IMG/VR virus record: IMGVR_UViG_3300045988_147970
Direction: 5' to 3' (one strand)
DNA: 38,666 bases
DNA from: a virus
Taxonomy: Duplodnaviria; Heunggongvirae; Uroviricota; Caudoviricetes
Part shown: in pieces, positions 6,077 through 26,438 of the stretch
Numbering within the stretch: position 1 is the stretch's first letter
How the letters are laid out: each line of letters begins with the position of its first letter
Made by a program: the position numbers and the translations under genes
The notes under the pieces: model-generated
Seen by the model: the letters and a program-made list of their open reading frames with translations, nothing else
Database searches by the model: none
Told to the model about the DNA's origin: nothing

Positions 6077-7933
6077 CTATATGGTTACGCCTTTACTTAT
6101 AACTCTACGGCGTCTTCTACGTATACCTGACGAGTTCTGCACATACACATTACCTCGCATTTCCTGTTCGGCAAGCCAGTTAAAATTAGGGTTCAGAATT
6201 TCCATCGCGGCAGTTGCATAGTTACGGCAATCAAGAGGCTCGTTACGCTCGTAGACTTTCACCCACTTTTCTTTTGTCTGCCCATTTTTATATTCAAATA
6301 TTTTCTTCTCTGATAATAATCCTTTAAAGTATTCGGTATCATATCCTCTGTCAGAATCTAATGGGAAATGCATATAACCAGGACCAGGATCATGTAGTTT
6401 AATTCTTGCCATGATGGTCCCTTTACCATCATCAACCCCCAAATTAAACAACATAGCACCCACACGGTTATTATTACTTGGCTTTCCTATAAATGGTAAA
6501 CCTACCCCACCACGCCCCCTGATAGAGTATATTCGCCTTGATTCTCTCGGCTTAGTAAAGCGATATACCTCTGTCGTAAAATGCCCACCAGAGTCAATAC
6601 AAACGGAAGAAATCTGTAATTTTCGACCGTCACGGAATGACCAGCTACGGAGTAAGTATTCATCAAGTTGTTTCCAGACAACATCTTGTGCGGGATCACC
6701 TGGGAATATTTTATATTCTATCCCCCATGACTCCTTACCTTTTCCCCAACCGACCAATTCACAAACTAAATACGTGTCCTGTACGTCAACACCAGCACTT
6801 AACAATAAAACATCATCTGGTAAAAACTCTTCAAACCTTATTCTGCGTTGCAACAAGTATTCAGGATCGATATCGTCTTTAGCATCCTCTTTCCATGGCT
6901 CACCCAGCTTAAGGTTAATAAACTCCATTAATCCATTTTTATCGCGGTTTCTGGTTGCTTCCGTAAATTCTTCAACCAGCTCTGACAATGCAACCCACGG
7001 GGAGTAAAGACTGTTAATATGAAAACCAACAATACCTTTAACTCCAGTATGTTCAGCTATCCATACCCCCTTCGCCAACCAATCAACGTCTGGTTTACCA
7101 GATCCGCGCATAATCCCGCCGCACTCACAGCACTCATATCTGGCCGTTTCCGGTAACGCCTCACCTGAATCGCTCTTATCCCATCTGACTTGCGACCATT
7201 TCATCACCTGCATGGTGCCACAACATGGGCAAGGAACATGGTAGTAACGCTGATCGGAGAGCTTAAACCACTTGTGGATTTTGCTCGTTTCCTCCAAAAC
7301 AGGAGTAGAAACAAAAACTTTCTTACGATTATGAAAGTTGGTAGTACGCTGAATACCTAGTTTTAGTGGGTCGCCCTCCTGCGTCACACCGTAACGATCA
7401 ATCTCATCAGCTAACAGTATTCGAATTGGCCTGGATGCAAGACCTGCTGGGGAATTAGCACCAACAAGTGCTATATATCCACCAGCGTAATGCTTCATAC
7501 GTATAGTCGTGCTGGACTTTTTGGCTGCACCGCGCCCCTCTTTCCCTTCATGCAGCTTGTGTTTCAAACCAGGGGAATATTTGAACGTCGGATCAATACG
7601 CTCTTTTGAAAAAGCCTCAGCCGCCTCTACCGTTGGATAAATCATCAACTGAGGAGATGGCTCCTGATCTGCAAAGTAACCCATAACATTTAGCTGTAAT
7701 TCGGATTTACCAATTTGCGAGCTACATTGCATCACTACTGTTTCTGTATCAGCGTCACCAATAACATCCATTGGTTCACGCAAATATGGCACTCGGCTTG
7801 TACGCCACGGCCCTGGCTCTGGAGACGTTCCCGGCGCTACATGACGATACTTATCAGCCCATTCGGAAACAGTTAGCCGTGATTTAGGGCGAAGCGCACG
7901 GAAAAAAGCGGTGCTCCATACTGTTTCGCCCAT
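6077..7933 (-). CDS. terminase large subunit (lambda gpA family)
   Basis: 618 aa; N-terminal TVSEWADKYRHV resembles lambda gpA AVEWADANYYLP; Cys-rich CPCCG motif aligns with gpA CPHCG. Confidence 0.85.
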   Translation of the reverse strand: MGETVWSTAFFRALRPKSRLTVSEWADKYRHVAPGTSPEPGPWRTSRVPYLREPMDVIGDADTETVVMQCSSQIGKSELQLNVMGYFADQEPSPQLMIYPTVEAAEAFSKERIDPTFKYSPGLKHKLHEGKEGRGAAKKSSTTIRMKHYAGGYIALVGANSPAGLASRPIRILLADEIDRYGVTQEGDPLKLGIQRTTNFHNRKKVFVSTPVLEETSKIHKWFKLSDQRYYHVPCPCCGTMQVMKWSQVRWDKSDSGEALPETARYECCECGGIMRGSGKPDVDWLAKGVWIAEHTGVKGIVGFHINSLYSPWVALSELVEEFTEATRNRDKNGLMEFINLKLGEPWKEDAKDDIDPEYLLQRRIRFEEFLPDDVLLLSAGVDVQDTYLVCELVGWGKGKESWGIEYKIFPGDPAQDVVWKQLDEYLLRSWSFRDGRKLQISSVCIDSGGHFTTEVYRFTKPRESRRIYSIRGRGGVGLPFIGKPSNNNRVGAMLFNLGVDDGKGTIMARIKLHDPGPGYMHFPLDSDRGYDTEYFKGLLSEKKIFEYKNGQTKEKWVKVYERNEPLDCRNYATAAMEILNPNFNWLAEQEMRGNVYVQNSSGIRRRRRRVISKGVTI

Positions 7934-7938
7934 GAGGT

Positions 7939-8499
7939 TTATTCTTCCTGCTTAATAAATCGGGATTCCTGGAGCGCCTGAAGCGCAAAATTAATCTCGT
8001 CTTCAATAATGCGTTCGATCTCCCTGGCTGTTTTGCCTTCACAACGGGGAGCTGCTCTTGGAGCAATACTAAATAAGCGGCTACGCAATTCATTAGCTGC
8101 CAGAAATGCATCATCCCTGACCGCATCTTTAGCGATGAGAGAGCCTTCCTTTTCTTCAAATTCAAGGCGTTTCAGCTTTGCCTGATAAATTTTTTCTGCG
8201 GTCTTAGCCTTGTTGAATTGCACCGCAACACCGGAAGTACCACCAGCTAATCCGGCATCATCAGCGGGTAACTCTGGTTGTTCCGAAGATATCCCATGCC
8301 CTCTTTTTCCATTTTCAGCAGATACCTCACGACCAACCTGTCGGCTCGCTTCATAAGCCGCACTGGCTTTATCAAAATCCAGCTTGCCGCTTTTCAGCAC
8401 TGGAATGCGACCGGAACGACAGAGCTTCGTAACCATTGCCGGAGAAATACCTTTCCGGCGAGCAAACTCTGACTTACTGACGATGGCCATTACTTGCAA
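7939..8499 (-). CDS. terminase small subunit (Nu1-like, N-terminal HTH)
   Basis: 186 aa directly upstream of the large terminase; N-terminal helix-turn-helix-like segment (SKSEFARRKGISPAMVTKL). Confidence 0.6.
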   Translation of the reverse strand: MQVMAIVSKSEFARRKGISPAMVTKLCRSGRIPVLKSGKLDFDKASAAYEASRQVGREVSAENGKRGHGISSEQPELPADDAGLAGGTSGVAVQFNKAKTAEKIYQAKLKRLEFEEKEGSLIAKDAVRDDAFLAANELRSRLFSIAPRAAPRCEGKTAREIERIIEDEINFALQALQESRFIKQEE

Positions 8500-9637: not shown

Positions 9638-10357
9638 TTAACGAGAGAAGGTCTTGGAAAGAATGTCATCAATAGCCTTTGTGACTTCATCAGCAAACGC
9701 ATCCTCACCAGCACGCAGCGCCACGCCATGCCAATCAAGACGCTGCGAATAGTTAGGTTGCTGGATAAACGTAAGGATCAACGTAGGACGCCGCCCAACG
9801 CGCTGCCAGACGCCTGGTTGAAGCGGGTTACTTGTACCAGGTCGAACAACAAAAAACTCCGTAGGCTTGCCCTGACGGCGATTTTGATGCGCATCTCGCT
9901 GAACTCTTAGGCCAGATAAGACCTGCTGTAATTGCCCCCGCGAAATATTCCCGTATTTGTCCAGCTTTGCGCCGGGACCAGGAGCAATCTGCCAGCCGTT
10001 AGGCAAATATCCACCAGCCCTTAGCGCCCCTTCTGAGCGTTTGTACTGTCGTTGGCCACCTTCGATTTGCGGAGTCAACGTTACAGGGGCTGGCGTTCCT
10101 CCCCATTCACGAGCATACACAATGGCTGTAGGATCACTCTTCTTTGCGGCCAAAACGTAAGTAGAGTTCTGAATCCACGGCGTGGGCCTGTCAAATACCC
10201 GATTAATTTCATTCTTAATCGCAGCCTGAGAAGCCTTTGCCGTTCTGGTTGCCGCAAGCGCCATTGCGAACGGCAATTCGCGTTCTTCAAGGCGCTGGAG
10301 TTGTCGTTGAATATCCTGAGAAGAAAAATCCATCTTTATCTCAATTCTGTCAGCCAC
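9638..10357 (-). CDS. hypothetical protein within the ParB/methyltransferase cassette
   Basis: 239-aa ORF co-oriented between the ParB-MTase fusion and the terminase-proximal ParB gene; no motif recognised. Confidence 0.35.
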   Translation of the reverse strand: MADRIEIKMDFSSQDIQRQLQRLEERELPFAMALAATRTAKASQAAIKNEINRVFDRPTPWIQNSTYVLAAKKSDPTAIVYAREWGGTPAPVTLTPQIEGGQRQYKRSEGALRAGGYLPNGWQIAPGPGAKLDKYGNISRGQLQQVLSGLRVQRDAHQNRRQGKPTEFFVVRPGTSNPLQPGVWQRVGRRPTLILTFIQQPNYSQRLDWHGVALRAGEDAFADEVTKAIDDILSKTFSR

Positions 10358-13777: not shown

Positions 13778-13978
13778 TTAATGCTCGCGTCGTCCGGCGA
13801 CAACTTCGGATTTGTATTTCAGGTCGCCCAGCAAGAATTGCAGTTTAAGCATCTTTGCCGCCGTGTAGTTTCCTGATTCCACAACCTCTTTCATGAGGTC
13901 ATAAACGGCCGCAACATCATCAGCCAGGAACTCTTTGCGTTGCTGCTCAGTCGCACGTTTGAAGGAAATACGCATCAC
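13778..13978 (-). CDS. hypothetical protein
   Basis: 66-aa ORF; its start overlaps the upstream stop. Confidence 0.3.
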   Translation of the reverse strand: MMRISFKRATEQQRKEFLADDVAAVYDLMKEVVESGNYTAAKMLKLQFLLGDLKYKSEVVAGRREH

Positions 13979-14244
13979 TCATCATCTCCTGCCGCACATA
14001 CAACCTCACAAAAAACATCAGCGGAATGTTTCTTTTTGAATGAATGGCGCTCAAAACCGCACTCAATATCAGGCGCAAAAACATCCACCACATACGGTCT
14101 TTCAGAATGTTTGTTTTCCCAACGATAAACCGTAGTGACGTTGAAATGTTTTAACGCTTCACGGTACTCAACGCTGCCCGTCAGGTTTTTTGAGGTCAGG
14201 TATTGCAGGAGGTTTTTTACTACTTCACGGTCTTGTACTTTCAT
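13975..14244 (-). CDS. hypothetical protein, first gene after a duplicated operator-bearing promoter module
   Basis: 89-aa ORF; GGAG RBS; preceded by the ~104-bp module that is duplicated upstream of the DUF3560-like gene. Confidence 0.35.
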   Translation of the reverse strand: MKVQDREVVKNLLQYLTSKNLTGSVEYREALKHFNVTTVYRWENKHSERPYVVDVFAPDIECGFERHSFKKKHSADVFCEVVCAAGDDE

Positions 14245-14251
14245 CGGGTTA

Positions 14252-14355
14252 TCTCCGGTTTAACCAGGGCGGGTATCGCTCGGTTTCGGGTATAATCATA
14301 GGAAATTTTTTCCCACCTGCAAAGCACTTTTTATATAAATATATAATTATATAAT
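14252..14355. repeat. ~104-bp duplicated promoter-leader module, copy A (copy B at 21832..21935)
   Basis: ~93% identical to 21832..21935; each copy sits directly upstream of a minus-strand gene start and carries the AGGAAA-N3-TTTCC operator-like motif and AT-rich TATATAA repeats. Confidence 0.6.
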
Positions 14356-20757: not shown

Positions 20758-21825
20758 TCAGGCTTTCAATAGCGATTCTTTCAGATATCGGGCATCAGCC
20801 AGGGCGTTTGGAGTAATCTTGCGAACCCATGCATTACGGGTTGGACTCCACTTAAAGGCGCGTGATTTAAGCAGCGAACGAATGTTTGCCTCTGGTTTGC
20901 CTGGGAAATAAAACAGGATGCGGTTATCCTCTGGATCTATCTCCATAGAAAAGCCGTCGTATTCTTCGCGCTGTGCTCCTGTTACAGACTTGACCGATTC
21001 AAGCTCCTTAATACGGCTCTGTAGTCGTTTGATTTCGGCGTTATTGTTGCTCAGTGCGTATGAAGGGAATCCGATGTGCCCACAGAAATCTCCGGCCAGT
21101 AACTCTTTGGCTTCGCTTTCTGTAAACCTGAGATCGATTAATGCAGAAAGCTGCTGTAATTGGTCTTTTTTGTATTTGCGAATGGCCTTATTTGCGGCCT
21201 TCATTTTGACGTGTGACTTCATGCAGCCTTGCAGCTTACGAAGCAACTTAAATAGCGCATCAGGATCATCAGACGAAATTCCATTACGACCAACACCTGC
21301 GGCTTTGCTCTCGTAGTGTGATGCTTTACTTTCGCATTCAACAAACGCTTTTCTTAATAACGCATCAGCTTTAGACAAACGGCGGCGATGGCCTTTCGCG
21401 CTATAATGGTCAACTAAAATCGGCTGGCCTAACGGGATCACATCCAACAGGTCATGCGCTCGCTTATGCGCTACCGCACCTTCTTTTCTGGCTTTTTCTG
21501 CACGAGCAATATATCGGGCAAGACGCGCGTTCTGGCGTTCCTGATAGGTGTTTACGTAATCATCTCCGCGCTGCTGCTGTTCAAGCCATGCTTTGCGCAG
21601 ATCTTCTGTTACGTCCACCAGCTCCGCAGGGATACAACCAGTTTGGGCTTCATAAGAGTAACCATCCTCATAGATACGCCCATCATCTTCAACAAAGAAA
21701 AAGGTTTCGTGCTCATCGCTTTTGACCATACGACCATTAACATGGCGTAATAGGTAGCCAGTATCAGTGCTTAACAAGCTGTTAGGGTTGTTGATCCAGT
21801 CAGAAATAATTACTTGTTTATTCAT
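20758..21825 (-). CDS. DUF3560-like protein with N-terminal extension
   Basis: Start at MNKQVII (residue 51 of the track ORF) with GGAG RBS; motifs GQPILVDHYSAKGHRRR, SSDDPDALFKL, KAANKAI, DFCGHIGFPSYALSNNNAEIKR, FKWS match my recollection of DUF3560. Confidence 0.5.
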   Translation of the reverse strand: MNKQVIISDWINNPNSLLSTDTGYLLRHVNGRMVKSDEHETFFFVEDDGRIYEDGYSYEAQTGCIPAELVDVTEDLRKAWLEQQQRGDDYVNTYQERQNARLARYIARAEKARKEGAVAHKRAHDLLDVIPLGQPILVDHYSAKGHRRRLSKADALLRKAFVECESKASHYESKAAGVGRNGISSDDPDALFKLLRKLQGCMKSHVKMKAANKAIRKYKKDQLQQLSALIDLRFTESEAKELLAGDFCGHIGFPSYALSNNNAEIKRLQSRIKELESVKSVTGAQREEYDGFSMEIDPEDNRILFYFPGKPEANIRSLLKSRAFKWSPTRNAWVRKITPNALADARYLKESLLKA

Positions 21826-21831
21826 CAGATT

Positions 21832-21935
21832 TCTCCGGTTTAACCAGGGCGGGTATCGCTCGGTTTCGGGTATAACCTTAGGAAATTTTTTCCCACCCGT
21901 AAAGCACTTTTTATATAAATCTATAATTATATAAA
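21832..21935. repeat. ~104-bp duplicated promoter-leader module, copy B
   Basis: See copy A; upstream of the DUF3560-like gene start at 21825. Confidence 0.6.
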
Positions 21936-22018
21936 TAATAGTGACTGGTGCTTTTTTAGGCTGCACATTAAACATTTTTGTTTAGCTTATTGGCAAGGTC
22001 TTGAAAAAGACATTTCAG

Positions 22019-22091: not shown

Positions 22092-22376
22092 ATGGCTAAA
22101 CCAAAATCTGAAATTGATGCTATTCGAGCATTAACAGAAGTAACAATTAAAGGTTTTGAGCAGGTTGCTCAGGCATTAGTTGATATGAGAGAAGCTCAGG
22201 GAAAAGTCGCACGAGCAACATATAATGGATTAACCTCCTCAGGAAAATCTCGCTATGTTGCATCGCTAGTAGAGGAAGTAGGATCACAAGCTGAAGTAAG
22301 CCGCATGTTAAATATCACACCTGGGCGCGTTAGCCAGCTTATGAAGTCCGAAAAAAACCGCAAAAATGGTAAGTAA
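22092..22376 (+). CDS. putative DNA-binding regulator; the only convincing plus-strand gene
   Basis: 94 aa; GGAGGTG RBS 5 nt upstream; C-terminal HTH-like SQAEVSRMLNITPGRVSQLMK; 16-bp perfect palindrome in its promoter region. Confidence 0.45.
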   Translation: MAKPKSEIDAIRALTEVTIKGFEQVAQALVDMREAQGKVARATYNGLTSSGKSRYVASLVEEVGSQAEVSRMLNITPGRVSQLMKSEKNRKNGK

Positions 22377-22409: not shown

Positions 22410-22709
22410 TTAGACATGGAACGCTACTCGCTTTCCTGTAGGAAGCTCAACATCCAGGCTTAATTTGCCTCCCATAGCTTCAACGTAACGCTTTAATGTC
22501 GCCAGCTTTAAATCATTTCCGCGCTGCTCCAGCTTTGTTACTGCTGGCTGGCTTATACCCATCGCCTCAGCAACCTGTTTTTGTGATAACTGGAGTTCTT
22601 CACGCATCATCTGCAAGCCGACCTCAAGAATCATCTCATCTGCCATTTCTTTAATTCGCGCCTGGCTTTCAGGTGAACGGCTGGCAATCACCTCATCTAA
22701 TGTTCTCAT
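22410..22709 (-). CDS. HTH XRE-family antitoxin (HigA-like)
   Basis: 99 aa; HTH QKQVAEAMGISQPAVTKLEQ; start overlaps the toxin stop by 1 nt (ATGA). Confidence 0.65.
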   Translation of the reverse strand: MRTLDEVIASRSPESQARIKEMADEMILEVGLQMMREELQLSQKQVAEAMGISQPAVTKLEQRGNDLKLATLKRYVEAMGGKLSLDVELPTGKRVAFHV

Positions 22710-23056
22710 TACTTGCTCTCCAGTGTGTTCAGATGTGCTGCAAACTCATCCTCAGCTATACGCACCAGTTTTTTATAAAACCGCTTATCGTTACTTTTGT
22801 CTCCTGCACAAAGAACGATGGCCCGACGAATCGGATCGAACGCATAAAAGGCTCTTATCGGACGGCCAGAAAACTGAACGCGAAGCTCTTTCATATTTTT
22901 GTACCGAGAACCTTTTACGGTATCGGCATATGGCCTGGGTAACTCAGGTCCGTAAACCTGTAGATTTTTCAAATCAGCCAAAACCTTTTCCTGAAGAGCC
23001 TCTTCTTGCTCATTTAGCCAGTCGTCAAATCGCTGGCTAAAAAGTACCGTCCACAT
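22709..23056 (-). CDS. RelE/HigB-superfamily toxin, phage Gp49-like
   Basis: Start at MWTV with AGGA RBS; ADTVKGSRYKNMKELRV...AFYAFDPIRRAIVLCAGDK...KRFYKKLVRIAEDEF matches the Gp49-like toxin pattern. Confidence 0.65.
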   Translation of the reverse strand: MWTVLFSQRFDDWLNEQEEALQEKVLADLKNLQVYGPELPRPYADTVKGSRYKNMKELRVQFSGRPIRAFYAFDPIRRAIVLCAGDKSNDKRFYKKLVRIAEDEFAAHLNTLESK

Positions 23057-23300: not shown

Positions 23301-23591
23301 CTATTTTTGTGACTTTACTCCTGGCATATGGACTTCCCAGCGACGAATCCCCATAGCTGCGCAAAAATCAGCCACATAATTCAATCCCGCCCATTCGCGG
23401 ATACCACCACGGGCTTTTTCAATGAAAACGGCAATCCCTTTTTTATTGAGAGCAAAAAGCCGCCAGCTTTTTGTCACTTCGTCCTGGGTAGCCACAACAC
23501 AAGTGAAAGCTCCCATGCGATACAGGTCCAAGAACTCTTTGCGTGTTTTGCGTACAAGTTCCATAACAAACCTCATATTTGCATGTTTCAA
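23301..23591 (-). CDS. hypothetical protein
   Basis: 96-aa ORF whose start overlaps the stop of the upstream HTH gene. Confidence 0.3.
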   Translation of the reverse strand: MKHANMRFVMELVRKTRKEFLDLYRMGAFTCVVATQDEVTKSWRLFALNKKGIAVFIEKARGGIREWAGLNYVADFCAAMGIRRWEVHMPGVKSQK

Positions 23592-23887
23592 ACATCTGTT
23601 TTGTTATCAATGAAGATTAACCCTAACCCAGCGAAGTAACACAGCAGCGCCCAGGCTGCATACGGAATGCTGGATCTGGATGTGGACTCCTTTAACATCT
23701 GCCAGTTGCGAACATTGCGACTATCTTTTAAGCCTAGTTTTTTGGCTAACTGCGAGCCGCTCATTCCGGTCAGGCCAATGACTGCCCGAACTTCTCCACA
23801 TGTAGGAGATTCCCATTCATCCGCTTTTTTTAAACAAGCCGGATTCAACATTTTTAAAACAGTATCTTTATCCATAACCATCTCCAT
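23588..23887 (-). CDS. XRE-like HTH protein with C-terminal hydrophobic segment
   Basis: HTH-like GMSGSQLAKKLGLKDSRNVRNWQ; C-terminal IPYAAWALLCYFAGLGLIFI; palindrome AGGAAA-N3-TTTCCT just upstream of the start. Confidence 0.4.
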   Translation of the reverse strand: MEMVMDKDTVLKMLNPACLKKADEWESPTCGEVRAVIGLTGMSGSQLAKKLGLKDSRNVRNWQMLKESTSRSSIPYAAWALLCYFAGLGLIFIDNKTDV

Positions 23888-23906
23888 TTATTATATCTAC
23901 GATGGT

Positions 23907-23921
23907 AGGAAATCTTTTCCT
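23907..23921. promoter_or_regulatory. operator-like perfect inverted repeat AGGAAA-TCT-TTTCCT
   Basis: Perfect 6-bp inverted repeat with 3-bp spacer ~20 bp upstream of the HTH gene start; near-identical copies at 14300..14314 and 21880..21894. Confidence 0.5.
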
Positions 23922-24368
23922 ATGTGGCAATAGAAATTTACTACATTGCGTATAAGACAAGTTTTCTATGTCTAATAGGAAATGATGTTTCTTACATTTT
24001 ATCGCGTTCTGATGGCTACTGTGTGCGTATTTATCGACGTTTATTGATAAGGCTCGCCCCTTCCTCCTGCAAAGCCCGGCCGTAGGCCTTATTTCGGCCT
24101 TATATAAATTGATTTTGTATAGTTCGAAACGTGCCGTTTCGAAAAGGATGATCAGGCTGCTCCATGCCTCCGGCAAGTGCCGGAGGAGGTATATTTGAGC
24201 GTAGCGACTCGAACCGGCGCGAGCTTTAGCTCGCTGCAAGGGCGAACATATTCACAGGCAAAGCCTGTGTAAGTTAAATAAAGAAAGTCTTAATAAAAGA
24301 AAGTGATTTTGCATTTATTTGTTTAGTGCATCTATTATAAAAAACCATTTGCATATACATATCAGAAC

Positions 24369-24377
24369 TGTGGATAA
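24369..24377. promoter_or_regulatory. DnaA box (TGTGGATAA) within candidate oriR
   Basis: Perfect 9-mer consensus ~145 bp downstream of the repA stop in an AT-rich stretch. Confidence 0.5.
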
Positions 24378-24518
24378 CTTTATTAGCCGATGCCTGTAAA
24401 GGCGATATTTTTGCTGTGTTCAGGTTTAGAGAAAATTAATTTAGATTGTTTTTTGAACAGATATTTTATTGCGACGTAGATAATCCTCCGGTAAAACCGG
24501 ATTCATCATTCAGGTGGG

Positions 24519-25367
24519 TTAATGTTGGAGTGATTTCCAGGTCTTTCTTAACCTGTTATAACGCTGCTCAACGAGGGATCGTAAATATGCAAGGTCAGCA
24601 CCAGGATACATGCCATCAGCAAATTCCTGACTAACCTCTCTGGTGATTTGATGACGAAGTTCGGCCTCTCCCTTTTCCCGAACAAGACGCGCAGCTCTCT
24701 CCGCTGCTTTCTGTTTTGCCTTTATCTCTCTGGCCGTCTTCCTCTGACGCCATACATTCTCCATCTGCTCCTGAATAACAATACGCTTATAATCAGCCTC
24801 CGTTATCGCTTTTTTAAGCCGTTCGCTATTCTTCGCATTGAAGTAATTAAGTTTCTGGCTAACCGCACGTCTCCATGCTTGTTCAGTAATACCAACGGTT
24901 TCCAGCAGTTGATCACGAATCTCTATTTTCGCTGGCCAATACTGTTTATTCACCCGATCCCAGCGACGTTCATAATCAATAAAACCTAACGCTTTCAGTT
25001 GCGACAACGCCCTTGTACAGCGCGTTATAGACTTGTTCCCAGCTTCGGATACGGTAGACAGGCCGCAAAAATCAGCCAACGCCTCAGCACTAGCCAGAAC
25101 CCGCTTAGAAATGATGTTTACATGGTGCAAAATCGCAGCGATCACAGCATTAATCGCCCGACGACGATGCTCGTTTATCCGGCGCTTCCGCTCTGACGGT
25201 TGATTAACGTAGAACGCAACCTCACACGTAAGATCACGCCCATTAATGCGCTGTAAAGCATCAGATAACACCAGCGGCAGCTTGTGCGTATGGTGCTTTG
25301 GAGGCTGGAACTCCGGCGACAAATTACAAACGTAAGCTGAACGTAGAGACGGCATTGGTCTATCCAT
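24519..25367 (-). CDS. repA: replication initiator RepA, IncFII RepA1 family
   Basis: AINAVIAAILHHVNIISKRVLASAEALADFCGLSTVSEAGNKSITRCTRALSQLKALGFIDYE aligns with my recollection of R100 RepA1. Start set at MDRP; the track ORF extends 44 codons further upstream in frame. Confidence 0.8.
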   Translation of the reverse strand: MDRPMPSLRSAYVCNLSPEFQPPKHHTHKLPLVLSDALQRINGRDLTCEVAFYVNQPSERKRRINEHRRRAINAVIAAILHHVNIISKRVLASAEALADFCGLSTVSEAGNKSITRCTRALSQLKALGFIDYERRWDRVNKQYWPAKIEIRDQLLETVGITEQAWRRAVSQKLNYFNAKNSERLKKAITEADYKRIVIQEQMENVWRQRKTAREIKAKQKAAERAARLVREKGEAELRHQITREVSQEFADGMYPGADLAYLRSLVEQRYNRLRKTWKSLQH

Positions 25368-25382
25368 ATGTTCGCTCTTGCG

Positions 25383-25495
25383 TCCACGGAAAACCAACGT
25401 ATAATGGGAGTTGTCGAGGCGCCCATGGATTGTTGTTGTTGGTTTTCCGTGGATGTCGCAAGAAGCCCGCAGATTTATCTGCGGGCTTTTTGTTT
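25383..25495 (+). ncRNA. candidate CopA-like antisense RNA opposite the repA leader
   Basis: 16-bp perfect inverted repeat (25383..25398 with 25438..25453) followed by hairpin AGCCCGCAGA-TTTA-TCTGCGGGCT and a T-run on the plus strand; boundaries inferred. Confidence 0.4.
25464..25495 (+). terminator. rho-independent terminator on the plus strand, antisense to the repA leader
   Basis: Perfect 10-bp stem with 4-nt loop followed by TTTTTGTTT. Confidence 0.55.
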
Positions 25496-25862
25496 CCATA
25501 TCTGGTCACTTTCCAACCAGACACCCACAATCATAACCACGTTACGTGGTTTTAAGAGAACTCTACCACAACACTTTCGGTCATGCACGAAGTCTCTCAC
25601 TGATCGAACGATAATCCACCAGTAAAAGGATCTAAATTGGATCTCGTTTTGCGAGCATCATACTACTGGCCTAACTCCAGTCAATGATTCCCAGCCAGAA
25701 ACCTGCGGTAAACTCATCGTTCAGCAATATGCTGTCCGGCTTCAAAGATAAGGTGACATCATCCCTTAACAGCGCGGCCAGCTCCGTTAAAGGGTTGTTT
25801 TGACTTAATGCAAAACCGCTAATAAACATATTGGCGGTTTTGTTCCTTAAATCATCTTGCCT

Positions 25863-26438
25863 TTACACTAATTCTGGCCATTCGATATCAGGGGCATTTT
25901 CCGGCTGAACGCGATTCAGTAGCACACGGTATTTTTTCCAGTGTGTCAGGCTTAACTTTTCTTCCTCGGTAGCCATATCTAAATCGACAGCATCCTGCAG
26001 AGTGGCAATAATTTCACCTGCATATGCAATCAGCTCTTTCTTCTGAGAGTCAGCCGCTCTGACAAGCGCATCACGCTCTGCATTCTCATCATTCACCCAC
26101 GCATTGCCGTTCCATTTCTGATAATCCCCCTCCGGGGAAATGGCTGTCACGTCTGGAGGTAATACGCCAAGTTCAGAAATATAAATGGCTGCTCCCGTTT
26201 TCGTTTCATAGACGGTCTTTCCGCGATGGTCTTCCATCAGTTCCCATTTCATTTCATCTGCATTGAAAACGGCTGCATAACCCGCCGGAATATCAGGCGG
26301 TGCAATATCTGTACTGTTTGCAGGCAGGCCAGTATACGGTGGGATATATGCGTCACTTTCGCCAATAAATTCATTGGTTCCATCAAGTAAATTGAAAACG
26401 CGGATAGTTTGTGCTTCTGCACTCATTCTGAAAGCCAT
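25863..26438 (-). CDS. tail fiber assembly protein
   Basis: 191 aa immediately downstream of the tail fiber gene with overlapping stop/start; pattern typical of Tfa chaperones. Confidence 0.7.

Follow-up and report, generated by a model that had tools for sequence, protein, structure and literature searches.

A probable IncFII-type plasmid origin downstream of repA, and a separate dispersed operator, in an E. coli phage-plasmid

The DNA downstream of the replication initiator gene in this element raises the question of where plasmid replication starts and which of the nearby repeats serve it. An earlier, sequence-only reading of the window (the whole stretch of viral DNA that was analysed, 38,666 nucleotides) had placed a candidate oriR between positions 23888 and 24518, built from a DnaA box and iteron-like AGGAAAT repeats, and had suggested that replication origin and transcriptional control may overlap there. 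In our analysis the two come apart: 24160-24377 (in an extended form, down to about 24050) is probably where a 48-kb E. coli phage-plasmid starts replication in its plasmid mode, as the origin of an IncFII-family replicon without an assigned type, and the AGGAAAT inverted repeat at 23906-23922 is likely an operator lying outside that origin.

The initiator gene and the origin core

The features on which the origin assignment draws are, in the direction of repA transcription:

25684 to 25657, minus strand: promoter-like site for repA, TTGACT-16-TATGAT (promoter scan)
25380 to 25497, plus strand: candidate antisense RNA opposite the repA leader, a long hairpin and then a terminator (from its fold)
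24519 to 25367, minus strand: repA, replication initiator (Pfam IncFII_repA)
24378 to 24518, minus strand: spacer between repA and the origin, likened to the CIS region of R1
24369 to 24377, minus strand: DnaA box TTATCCACA, the repA-proximal edge of the origin (sole exact match in the window)
24310 to 24354, minus strand: three ATGCA motifs, candidate RepA boxes (invariant columns in six lineages)
24270 to 24309, minus strand: AT-rich stretch, probable unwinding element (GC content and direct repeats)

The repA reading frame is open to 25499, with M45 at 25367 as its likely start, and matches Pfam IncFII_repA (PF02387) with an E-value of 1.3e-43 and 149.8 bits against a cut-off of 22.9, the domain starting at residue 53 of the 326-aa frame. 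The protein is 40% identical to R100 RepA across 97 aa and about 37% identical to the RepA annotated on a group of 43.6-kb plasmids (rep_cluster_1367); the RepA of R64 reaches 22.0 bits, slightly under the Pfam cut-off. MOB-suite gave the replicon of the window no type, and a scan of genome contigs that used the single protein as query returned no RepA relatives. Opposite the repA leader, the candidate antisense RNA (comparable in this position to CopA or Inc RNA) folds at -68 kcal/mol with a z-score of -9.05, and its long hairpin is followed by an intrinsic terminator at 25459-25492; the Rfam matches at this RNA were solely terminator-like and lay under the gathering thresholds, and a distinct leader peptide did not turn up.

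The perfect DnaA box reported downstream of repA is present: TGTGGATAA on the plus strand at 24369-24377 reads TTATCCACA on the minus (repA-sense) strand. It is the one exact box in 38.7 kb, where simple arithmetic predicts about 0.3 exact 9-mers on both strands, and with up to one mismatch the window holds 10 boxes for 11.3 expected. These counts are about what chance gives, and a single 9-mer taken alone is merely mildly improbable, so that the box persuades by its position and not by its count. It lies 142 bp after the repA stop (the distance is 177 bp for R100 and 168 bp for R64) and is invariant in 15 distinct E. coli-lineage sequences in which the neighbouring bases vary; relatives from Salmonella have TTATTCACA at the same position. 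The spacer that leads up to it opens with a hairpin (24487-24501) followed by ACGTC, and the context CCGGAGG...ACGTCTG after the repA stop is common to the window, R100, R64 and the relatives; in the E. coli lineage the spacer is the most variable part of the region (20 of 141 columns). The segment downstream of repA is also AT-rich, as had been noted, with 23% GC in 24270-24377 against 44% in the window.

The core at 24160-24377 runs from the DnaA box through the three ATGCA motifs and a stretch of 17.5% GC with two direct repeats into a series of hairpins, and nothing else in the intergenic region varies so little: 6 of the 218 columns of the core are variable among the 15 sequences, while the neighbouring non-coding DNA has 55 variable columns in 425 (Fisher p = 1.2e-5). 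This constraint, the IncFII_repA initiator, the DnaA box and a layout like that of R100 and R64 together uphold the proposal of an oriR downstream of repA.

Within the core, the ATGCA motifs (TGCAT on the plus strand at 24350-24354, 24327-24331 and 24310-24314, spaced by 23 and 17 bp) occur as a triple once in the window, with 0.06 expected, and ATGCA, ATGCA and ATGC are invariant columns over six lineages (alignment A1). They stand beside the DnaA box and are better candidate initiator sites than the AGGAAAT repeats. They are just as invariant in lineages whose RepA is about 37% identical, which is somewhat surprising for initiator-specific sites. The motifs could be host-factor sites and not RepA sites. 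The likeness of ATGCA/ATGCG to the iterons of SGI1 and IncN2/N3 (...ATTATGCGY) was considered and dropped because the RepA of those elements belongs to a different family, RepA_C. The adjoining AT-rich stretch (24270-24309) carries two direct repeats, ACTTTCTTT(T)ATT(T)AA, at 24274-24288 and 24290-24304, and has the position that TCTTAA takes in R64 and the TCNTTTAAA repeats take in R100; it is the probable unwinding element.

The AGGAAA repeats and a dispersed operator

Further downstream, toward the next gene, and at two other places in the window lie the following:

23976 to 23983, plus strand: second direct TAGGAAAT copy, with the imperfect partner TTTCTTA 5 bp on (repeats D9 and I5)
23902 to 23930, minus strand: promoter-like site for the small-gene operon, TTGCCA-17-TACCAT (promoter scan)
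23588 to 23875, minus strand: 95-aa gene downstream of the operator, the "HTH gene" of the sequence-only reading (phrog_8351)
21879 to 21895: operator copy 2 (TAGGAAATTTTTTCCCA), 54-70 bp upstream of a DUF3560 gene
14299 to 14315: operator copy 3, 55-71 bp upstream of a minus-strand gene (13975-14244)

All three AGGAAA-containing repeats that had been placed around 23905-23982 were found: TAGGAAAT at 23906-23913 (plus), TAGGAAAA at 23915-23922 (minus) and TAGGAAAT again at 23976-23983 (plus). What had been called a "perfect palindrome" has perfect arms (7+3+7) but is interrupted, reading TAGGAAA-tct-TTTCCTA. This inverted repeat falls within the spacer of the promoter-like site TTGCCA-17-TACCAT, 31-47 bp before the likely ATG at 23875; it is invariant across the E. 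coli lineage, and in Salmonella relatives its arms and both promoter hexamers are kept, in contrast to the 3-bp spacer and the flanking bases. The Salmonella relatives lack the second direct copy, which has a substitution at 23979 in one E. coli-lineage sequence; it is possibly an auxiliary site or a product of chance.

As an 8-mer the motif is not enriched in the window (34 occurrences with up to one mismatch, 41.6 expected). The 17-bp inverted repeat is enriched: allowing one mismatch, it occurs three times (14299, 21879 and 23906), and a complete relative holds four copies with up to two mismatches against 0.30 expected, a number that none of 100 shuffles reached; each of the four stands 30-70 bp upstream of a gene. 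The copy at 14299 belongs to a segment of about 100 bp that is repeated at 21830-21945. The gene behind operator copy 2 starts at 21825 on the minus strand, and its DUF3560 product matches a PHROG family annotated as primase; since the element codes for such a primase-like protein, a separate lytic origin probably exists. The 95-aa protein belongs to phrog_8351, a family of unknown function (E 2.7e-59), matches a transcriptional repressor family (phrog_7950) weakly (E 3e-4) and has no Pfam family match. The AGGAAAT inverted repeat is thus a dispersed operator, one of at least three or four on the element, and a single repressor probably controls this small regulon. Candidate repressors are the 95-aa protein, a 94-aa protein (22092-22376) and a 218-aa helix-turn-helix protein that is annotated in the relative NZ_CP032259. 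The operators of the C1 repressor are scattered over the genome of phage-plasmid P1, and the likeness is that of one short operator repeated at scattered promoters; in the window, the operator has the form of a symmetric inverted repeat (7-3-7).

Could these repeats nonetheless be iterons, with RepA bound at 23905-23982 and origin firing and the small-gene promoter sharing the same sites? There are indeed three AGGAAA copies within 80 bp of AT-rich DNA near repA, and no E. coli-lineage sequence departs from the inverted repeat. Iterons, however, are at least three direct repeats of about 17-22 bp, in tandem or at regular spacing, beside an AT-rich region and are specific to the origin and its control region, whereas here two direct 8-mers stand 70 bp apart with one inverted copy, and further copies, at 14299 and 21879, precede other genes. 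With a length of 7-8 bp, the units form no tandem array (Tandem Repeats Finder reported no repeat array in 23700-24700); they sit 390-470 bp from the DnaA box, beyond the conserved core; the upstream direct copy is the one missing in Salmonella; and the identical inverted repeat precedes unrelated genes 2 and 9.6 kb away. The initiator itself comes from IncFII_repA, a non-iteron family, and origins of the IncFII, IncB and IncI families are not known to use iterons. Lineages that share the origin module, among them the rep_cluster_1367 plasmids and a Rouxiella plasmid, show no AGGAAAT repeats in the roughly 670 bp downstream of repA. We therefore give an iteron-type origin hardly any credence. 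The suggested overlap of replication and transcriptional control gives way likewise to a picture of neighbours, some 130-240 bp apart.

The hairpin module and the start of replication

Beyond the AT-rich stretch, the origin continues into a series of inverted repeats:

24248 to 24269: hairpin 1 (CACAGGC/GCCTGTG, 24253-24269) with an inverted DnaA-like box, its position kept in every lineage examined
24197 to 24242: hairpin 2 (GCGAGC-TTTA-GCTCGC, 24219-24234) with invariant flanks (covariation)
24167 to 24186: hairpin 3 (CCTCCGGCA/TGCCGGAGG; inverted repeat I15)
24123 to 24143: hairpin 4 (TTCGAAACG-tgc-CGTTTCGAA; inverted repeat I13)
24056 to 24079, plus strand: end block CCCCTTCCTCCTGCAAAGCCCGG with CTG at 24067-24069, a tentative candidate primase start

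Hairpin 1 overlaps the inverted DnaA-like box ATATTCACA (24248-24256, plus strand), and in every lineage examined a hairpin of divergent sequence at this place is followed by a DnaA-like box in inverted orientation. Hairpin 2 is flanked, in the repA-sense reading, by GCCCTTGCAGCG, GCCGGTTCG and TCGCTACGCTC; many plasmids and contigs carry its block behind a repA gene of the IncFII family, and in the E. coli lineage the block has one variable column. The stems covary: both sides are changed in six of seven pairs in hairpin 2, five of eight in hairpin 3 (with an equivalent CCTCCC hairpin in R100 and R64) and six of seven in hairpin 4, whose variation in the E. coli lineage is confined to the loop (24132). 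Taken together, 17 of the 22 pairs of hairpins 2-4 change on both sides, and 89.7% of cells are paired. Shuffled data give 69.5%, with none of 500 shuffles as high as the real alignment, and sliding the partners lowers the figure to 34-44%. Folded as DNA, the region has z-scores of -3.8 and -4.6 for the two strands. The covariation is purely Watson-Crick and symmetric between strands, so hairpins 2-4 do not tell the functional strand or whether the form is DNA or RNA.

The module is always directly downstream of an IncFII-family repA, on plasmid backbones that are otherwise unrelated, and about 80% of its core is conserved although the neighbouring RepA proteins have 24-37% identity (contigs whose RepA is just 24% identical to that of the window share it). 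A search of metagenomes with a tightened module pattern returned mostly lineages already known; with a pattern of 18 specified bases, chance matches dominate among genome contigs in GC-rich genomes. A long-range closing stem (GTTCGCCCTT with AAGGGGCGAG) suggested by single-sequence folds was rejected because E. coli-lineage sequences differ freely in its 3' arm without compensating change.

The end block resembles the priming site of phage G4. In the repA-sense reading, GGCTTTGCAGGAGG matches 13 of 14 bases of the annotated G4 complementary-strand primer start GGCTTTGCAGTAGG, and the likeness, GGCTTTGCAG(G/T)AGG, spans that start including the primase CTG on the template; as with G4-type signals, several GC-rich hairpins are close by. 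In the shuffle test one of 200 shuffles did as well for the window and none of 200 for lineage L135, whereas the similarity had no significance in lineages L143 and L005 or in R100 and R64: it is short and not common to all module-bearing lineages. CAGG is invariant in seven lineages, and the bases just past CAG (24050-24058) are highly variable. The arrangement is, however, the reverse of that of G4, whose stem-loops lie 5' of the CTG on the template, whereas hairpins 1-4 lie 3' of it on the plus strand and the sequence 5' of it shows, by reading, short weak inverted repeats only. R100 offers a better G4-like candidate (CAGTA, then the hairpin CCGGCttacGCCGG) about 35 bp further downstream, which has no counterpart in the window; for this reason, and given that most lineages are without G4 similarity, we have downgraded the CAGG block as an equivalent of the R1 leading-strand start.

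Modelling the steps on R1/R100 and on the IncB/IncI plasmids, we infer protein binding, melting, direction of replication and priming at this origin as follows. RepA would be made from the adjacent gene under antisense-RNA control and would act in cis over the 141-bp spacer; DnaA would bind TTATCCACA and possibly also the inverted box at 24248-24256; the stretch of 17.5% GC at 24270-24309 would then melt and DnaB be loaded. Unwinding would proceed away from repA and expose hairpins 1-4 as single strands, which may be used for priming or to assemble a primosome, with a possible start at the CTG (24067-24069). A role of the hairpin module in priming or helicase loading would fit this scheme.

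An alternative is that the DnaA box is a chance or regulatory site, that the origin lies elsewhere (upstream of repA or in the phage replication module) and that the hairpins are terminators, insulators or a small RNA. The chance expectation of about 0.3 exact boxes per window and the likely separate lytic origin mentioned above both leave room for it, and hairpin 3, together with a hairpin at 24391-24404, has terminator-like scores on the plus strand. Most of the hairpins, however, have no T-runs; Rfam (E up to 1) and ARAGORN gave no match across the intergenic region; and both the position of the DnaA box relative to repA, kept over R100, R64 and the clade of the window, and the unfailing place of the module behind an IncFII-family repA argue for an origin here, so that we regard a different location as unlikely. 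With 24160-24377 as the origin, hairpins 2-4 could be read as a PriA (phiX174)-type primosome assembly site on the repA-sense strand, the lagging-strand template, and not as a G4-type, primase-only site on the plus strand. In a G4-type signal the hairpins would have to stand on the other side of the CTG, and conservation is far stronger in the module than in the initiators, as one would expect of a recognition site for a host factor. Two further points favour the repA-sense strand: the common variant T24268C (12 of 15 E. coli-lineage sequences) still pairs in hairpin 1 on the minus strand, as G.T, where the plus strand has an A.C mismatch, and RNAalifold puts the G.U pairs of the closing helices on the repA-sense strand. 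Yet the covariation of hairpins 2-4 is the same on both strands, the predicted closing stem is not kept among the E. coli-lineage variants and R1 replication is not known to require a PriA-type primosome; the PriA reading is accordingly conceivable but rather doubtful.

A broader idea is speculative: that the multi-hairpin module of about 200 bp (24050-24269) forms an autonomous cassette to which host factors respond and which is exchanged between origins with unrelated initiator-box regions, and that TAGGAAA-N3-TTTCCTA marks a regulon of four promoters. If so, the cassette would act in priming or in helicase loading, and its hairpins 3' of a G4-like CTG would make it a single-strand initiation signal of a type other than G4 or phiX174; a regulon that includes the origin-adjacent operon could tie plasmid-mode maintenance to the lysis-lysogeny switch of this phage-plasmid family.

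Significance and comparison with known replicons

An IncFII-type origin beside a repressor operator follows a known architecture, so the finding is largely ordinary, and neither part overturns current understanding. Its use is practical. Phage-plasmids of this kind, 47-50 kb long, are common in E. coli and present in Klebsiella and Salmonella; MOB-suite gives them no replicon type, and placing the origin and its IncFII-family replicon gives a basis for typing, for predictions of incompatibility and for the construction of mini-replicons. Setting the origin apart from the operator keeps the repeats from being misannotated as "iterons", the operator is a pointer to a small regulon under the control of a repressor, and the conserved hairpin module is a testable candidate for the recruitment of host priming at IncFII-family origins. 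Phage-plasmids of this size class are also on record as phages plated on Yersinia pestis; for the Yersinia phages vB_YpM_39, 41 and 44 our literature search found no paper.

In R1, oriR is 188 bp long and has a DnaA box with RepA binding directly downstream of it (PMC5883639). The window shares with R1/R100 an IncFII_repA initiator, an origin downstream of repA behind a spacer that opens with a similar hairpin, TTATCCACA on the repA-sense strand at the proximal edge, and then a presumed initiator-binding stretch, AT-rich direct repeats, a hairpin with an inverted DnaA-like box and a CCTCC hairpin; the antisense RNA opposite the repA leader has its candidate counterpart here as well. It differs from R100 in the modest identity of RepA and the shorter distance to the DnaA box (both given above), in the three ATGCA motifs that replace the R100 sequence after the box, and in lacking a stretch of about 350 bp that in R100 separates hairpin 3 from the CAGG block. 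No Ter (Tus-binding) site such as those of R100 and R64 was found near the origin of the window.

The window also resembles the origins of the IncB and IncI1 plasmids (pMU720, ColIb-P9, R64). In R64 the DnaA box is followed at once by four AANCNGCAA boxes with a GCAA core and then by TCTTAA, a short AT-rich unwinding site, where the window has three boxes of the form ATGCA(A/C); the first two boxes are spaced by 24 bp in R64 and by 23 bp in the window. Boxes of the R64 type reportedly bind RepA (Betteridge et al., 2003 and 2004). Further on, R64 likewise has a hairpin, an inverted DnaA-like box and then CGCTTGCAGCG with hairpins 2 and 3.

The closest origin type is that of the 43.6-kb rep_cluster_1367 plasmids (e.g., NZ_CP010379, which we take to be pKPC_UVA01-like) and their relatives in Rouxiella, Enterobacter kobei and Klebsiella. 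These plasmids are typed as mobilizable and are not phage-plasmids, their RepA is the one of about 37% identity noted above, hairpin 4 is absent, and their DnaA box has the degenerate sequence TTATGAACA and stands about 9 bp nearer to box 1. They nevertheless have the same three ATGCA/ATGCG motifs, the AT-rich stretch and hairpin 1 with its inverted DnaA-like box, and the rep_cluster_1367 and Rouxiella plasmids carry a block nearly identical to that of the window, in which GACCGCCCTTGCAGCG, a hairpin and GCCGGTTCG...TCGCTACGCTC follow one another.

The phage-plasmid and its repA gene

The window is part of an E. coli element family whose members measure 47-50 kb. Its stretch 23500-25700 shows 100% identity with plasmids such as NZ_CP032259, and 99% with the 48.5-kb plasmid carried by E. 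coli ATCC 25922 and with three records that go under the name Yersinia phage vB_YpM_39, 41 and 44. The complete relative (NZ_CP032259) has genes for capsid, contractile tail, tail fibre, holin and terminase as well as for ParA and RepA; the element is therefore a phage-plasmid, to which MOB-suite gave no replicon type. Just past two small genes adjoining the origin lies a toxin-antitoxin pair (22410-23056, minus strand; toxin Gp49/RelE-like, HigB2 in the phage record's annotation, antitoxin HTH_3), and such pairs typically function in plasmid maintenance. A Hin/Cin-type DNA invertase gene, found between repA and the tail-fibre assembly genes in many relatives (6182-6736 of relative L001 was compared), is absent from the window's gap at 25500-25862 and likewise from NZ_CP032259, so the tail-fibre switching module differs among family members. 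An Rfam IS009 match within a tail-fibre assembly gene (25897-26095, minus strand; 52 bits, well under the gathering score of 117 bits) is most likely coding-sequence homology and not an RNA gene.

Features of repA and its leader
24519-25499, minus strand: repA as an open frame (Pfam IncFII_repA, E 1.3e-43)
25380-25497, plus strand: long hairpin and intrinsic terminator opposite the repA leader (fold -68 kcal/mol, z -9.05)
25684-25657: promoter-like site for repA, from a promoter scan

Since the IncFII_repA domain begins only at residue 53 and the other strand holds the structured element, the true start of repA is probably M45 at 25367. The frame is open for 44 codons upstream of it (25367-25499, minus strand), a stretch with no obvious separate tap- or repY-like leader ORF; RefSeq gives RepA 326 aa here and 277 aa in a Salmonella relative. 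The plus-strand element, for which Rfam returned sub-threshold terminator-like matches only (Thr_leader, CsrC), looks like a candidate CopA/Inc-type antisense RNA, and its fold and the promoter-like site for repA fit control of that type.

Layout of a probable origin downstream of repA

The sequence-only reading had proposed an origin downstream of repA, in an AT-rich segment with a DnaA box, and its coordinates were correct throughout. The box at 24369-24377 (TGTGGATAA on the plus strand, TTATCCACA on the minus, repA-sense strand) is the only exact one in the window; the intergenic DNA is AT-rich, with 23% GC at 24270-24377 against 44% for the window. One-mismatch matches to the box occur at chance level, and for that reason the 9-mers TTATCCATA and TTCTCCACA (23868-23876 and 23792-23800, plus strand), one where a 95-aa gene starts and one a little way into it, are probably meaningless.

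We compared the DNA downstream of repA, all oriented alike, from the window, R100 (IncFII), R64 (IncI1), two Salmonella phage-plasmid relatives (RepA ~82% identical), and rep_cluster_1367 plasmids (presumably pKPC_UVA01-like) and Rouxiella, Enterobacter kobei and Klebsiella plasmids (RepA ~36-37% identical). A single order of elements is common to all.

Shared order of elements, reading away from repA
1: hairpin directly after the repA stop, in the context CCGGAGG...ACGTCTG
2: spacer of 140-180 bp
3: DnaA box on the repA-sense strand
4: short stretch in which small motifs are repeated
5: AT-rich DNA
6: hairpin, then a DnaA-like box in inverted orientation
7: more GC-rich hairpins

The window, R100 and R64 have an exact DnaA box; the Salmonella version is TTATTCACA, and the remaining replicons have degenerate forms. 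Among 15 distinct E. coli-lineage sequences from plasmids, viral contigs and metagenomes, the box is invariant. Of 63 variable columns in 23860-24560, the core (24160-24377) holds few (6/218, against 55/425 in flanking non-coding DNA; Fisher p = 1.2e-5), with 14% of columns variable both in the spacer from repA to the box and in 23936-24049. The common order, the IncFII_repA initiator and the constrained core thus argue for the proposed origin.

Past the DnaA box, the window clade has three motifs (ATGCA, ATGCA, ATGC(A/G); TGCAT on the plus strand at 24350, 24327 and 24310) that are 23 and 17 bp apart, are invariant columns in six lineages (alignment A1) and form a triple with a single occurrence in the window (0.06 expected). 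The equivalent stretch of R64 has instead four AANCNGCAA motifs, the only four matches in 6 kb, and then TCTTAA; we take these to be RepA boxes and an unwinding hexamer of the pMU720 type, such as Betteridge and colleagues reportedly defined in that IncB plasmid. Given the invariance and rarity of the ATGCA motifs and the position of the R64 boxes, we read the former as candidate RepA boxes, and 24270-24309 (17.5% GC, two direct repeats ACTTTCTTT(T)ATT(T)AA) as a candidate unwinding element.

The AGGAAA repeats as a candidate operator

The repeats described as iteron-like do exist (TAGGAAAT at 23906 and 23976, an inverted copy at 23915-23922), and the supposed perfect palindrome has perfect arms, but it is an interrupted 7-3-7 inverted repeat, TAGGAAA-tct-TTTCCTA, which recurs upstream of other genes.

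Copies of the 17-bp inverted repeat
Window (at most one mismatch): 14299-14315; 21879-21895; 23906-23922
NZ_CP032259: 19922; 21527; 33201; 40155

The four copies in NZ_CP032259 compare with 0.30 expected (0/100 shuffles reach four), and every copy is followed by a same-strand gene 30-70 bp downstream. The window copy at 23906 fills the gap between the hexamers of a promoter-like site (TTGCCA-17-TACCAT), and the Salmonella relatives (~75% identity over the origin region) retain both arms and both hexamers, while the 3-bp centre and surrounding sequence have changed. The other two window copies lie in near-identical versions of a ~100-bp promoter-leader segment (14240-14350 and 21830-21945), each holding the operator TAGGAAATTTTTTCCCA ahead of a different minus-strand gene. 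The second direct copy (23976) is absent in the Salmonella relatives and carries a substitution in one E. coli sequence. Because the repeat is dispersed upstream of genes, sits in a promoter spacer and keeps its arms and hexamers, it bears the signature of a candidate repressor operator common to several promoters, and not of iterons; origin and operator are adjacent, so that the suggested overlap of replication and transcriptional control does not hold. The 95-aa protein downstream of the operator (phrog_8351) matches a repressor family weakly (E 3e-4). Behind one operator-bearing promoter lies a gene (20758-21825, minus strand) for a DUF3560 protein, which has a match (E 1.8e-36) in a PHROG family with a primase annotation and may be part of a separate, repressor-controlled lytic replication module.

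The hairpin module and known origins

Many plasmids that are otherwise unrelated share a 48-nt block with the window (24197-24244); where its surroundings were examined, an IncFII-family repA stands a few hundred bp upstream.

Parts of the module, reading away from repA
hairpin 1 and the inverted DnaA-like box
GACCGCCCTTGCAG, then hairpin 2
GCCGGTTCG...TCGCTACGCTC, then hairpins 3 and 4
end block CCGGCTTTGCAGGA..GGGG

Pattern scans found it in further lineages, including three viral contigs (L135, L139, L143) whose proximal half is R100-like, with TCNTTTAAA-like repeats in 3/3 and a DnaA box that is exact within TTATCCACATTAAAC in L135 and degenerate in the others. An upstream repA was looked for in L135 and L143, and both encode a Pfam IncFII_repA protein, that of L135 only 24% identical to the window RepA; the downstream module is the same despite R100-like proximal halves and diverged RepA. 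In a seven-lineage alignment of hairpins 2-4, both sides have changed in 17 of 22 stem pairs, and the paired share of cells is 89.7%, where shuffles give 69.5% (0/500 as high) and slid partners 34-44%; the DNA also folds better than shuffles on both strands (z -3.8, -4.6). Covariation and folding together indicate that the hairpins are selected as structures, and the module is far more conserved than the initiators, a pattern consistent with host machinery recognising it on unwound DNA. The compensatory changes are all Watson-Crick, so covariation does not tell the active strand; a common hairpin 1 variant, T24268C, retains a G.T pair on the repA-sense strand only, a hint toward that strand. 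In metagenome contig L155 (ERZ827469 NODE-451, 7700-8108), a variant origin of the rep_cluster_1367 type passes into unrelated sequence a few bases past TCGCTACGCTC, which suggests a recombination breakpoint within the module.

The complementary-strand origin of phage G4 offers a possible parallel, its annotated primer start reading GGCTTTGC|AGTAGGG on the new strand. Window 24079-24066 reads GGCTTTGC|AGGAGG, giving a candidate primase CTG at 24067-24069 on the plus strand, which would template a leading strand moving away from repA. This is the best local alignment of window and G4 (1/200 shuffles equal it; 0/200 score as well for L135); L143, L005 (another lineage), R100 and R64 gave nothing significant against shuffles. 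On the template strand the hairpins are found on the 3' side of the CTG, opposite to their placement in G4, and the bases directly past CAG are the region's most variable. R100 has a better G4-like candidate ~400 bp past the 188-bp oriR, CAGTA and then a hairpin CCGGCttacGCCGG, the place to which the start of the R1 leading strand was reportedly mapped, and the window has no counterpart. For these reasons we do not class the module as a G4-type signal and infer only that it may serve priming or helicase loading.

In R100 (~10205-10225), R64 (~2022-2038) and two relatives, L008 and L009, a Ter-like (Tus-binding) ATGTTGTAACTA separates the origin from the conserved region further downstream, in an orientation that by our reading would stop forks coming from the origin side; none was found near the window origin. 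The oriR of R1 spans 188 bp, and there DnaA occupies its box only if RepA is bound immediately downstream (PMC5883639). For the window we infer each step (binding, melting, direction and priming) from architecture and conservation, and its origin is very probably a new, compact member, on a phage-plasmid, of the well-known IncFII/IncB/IncI class.
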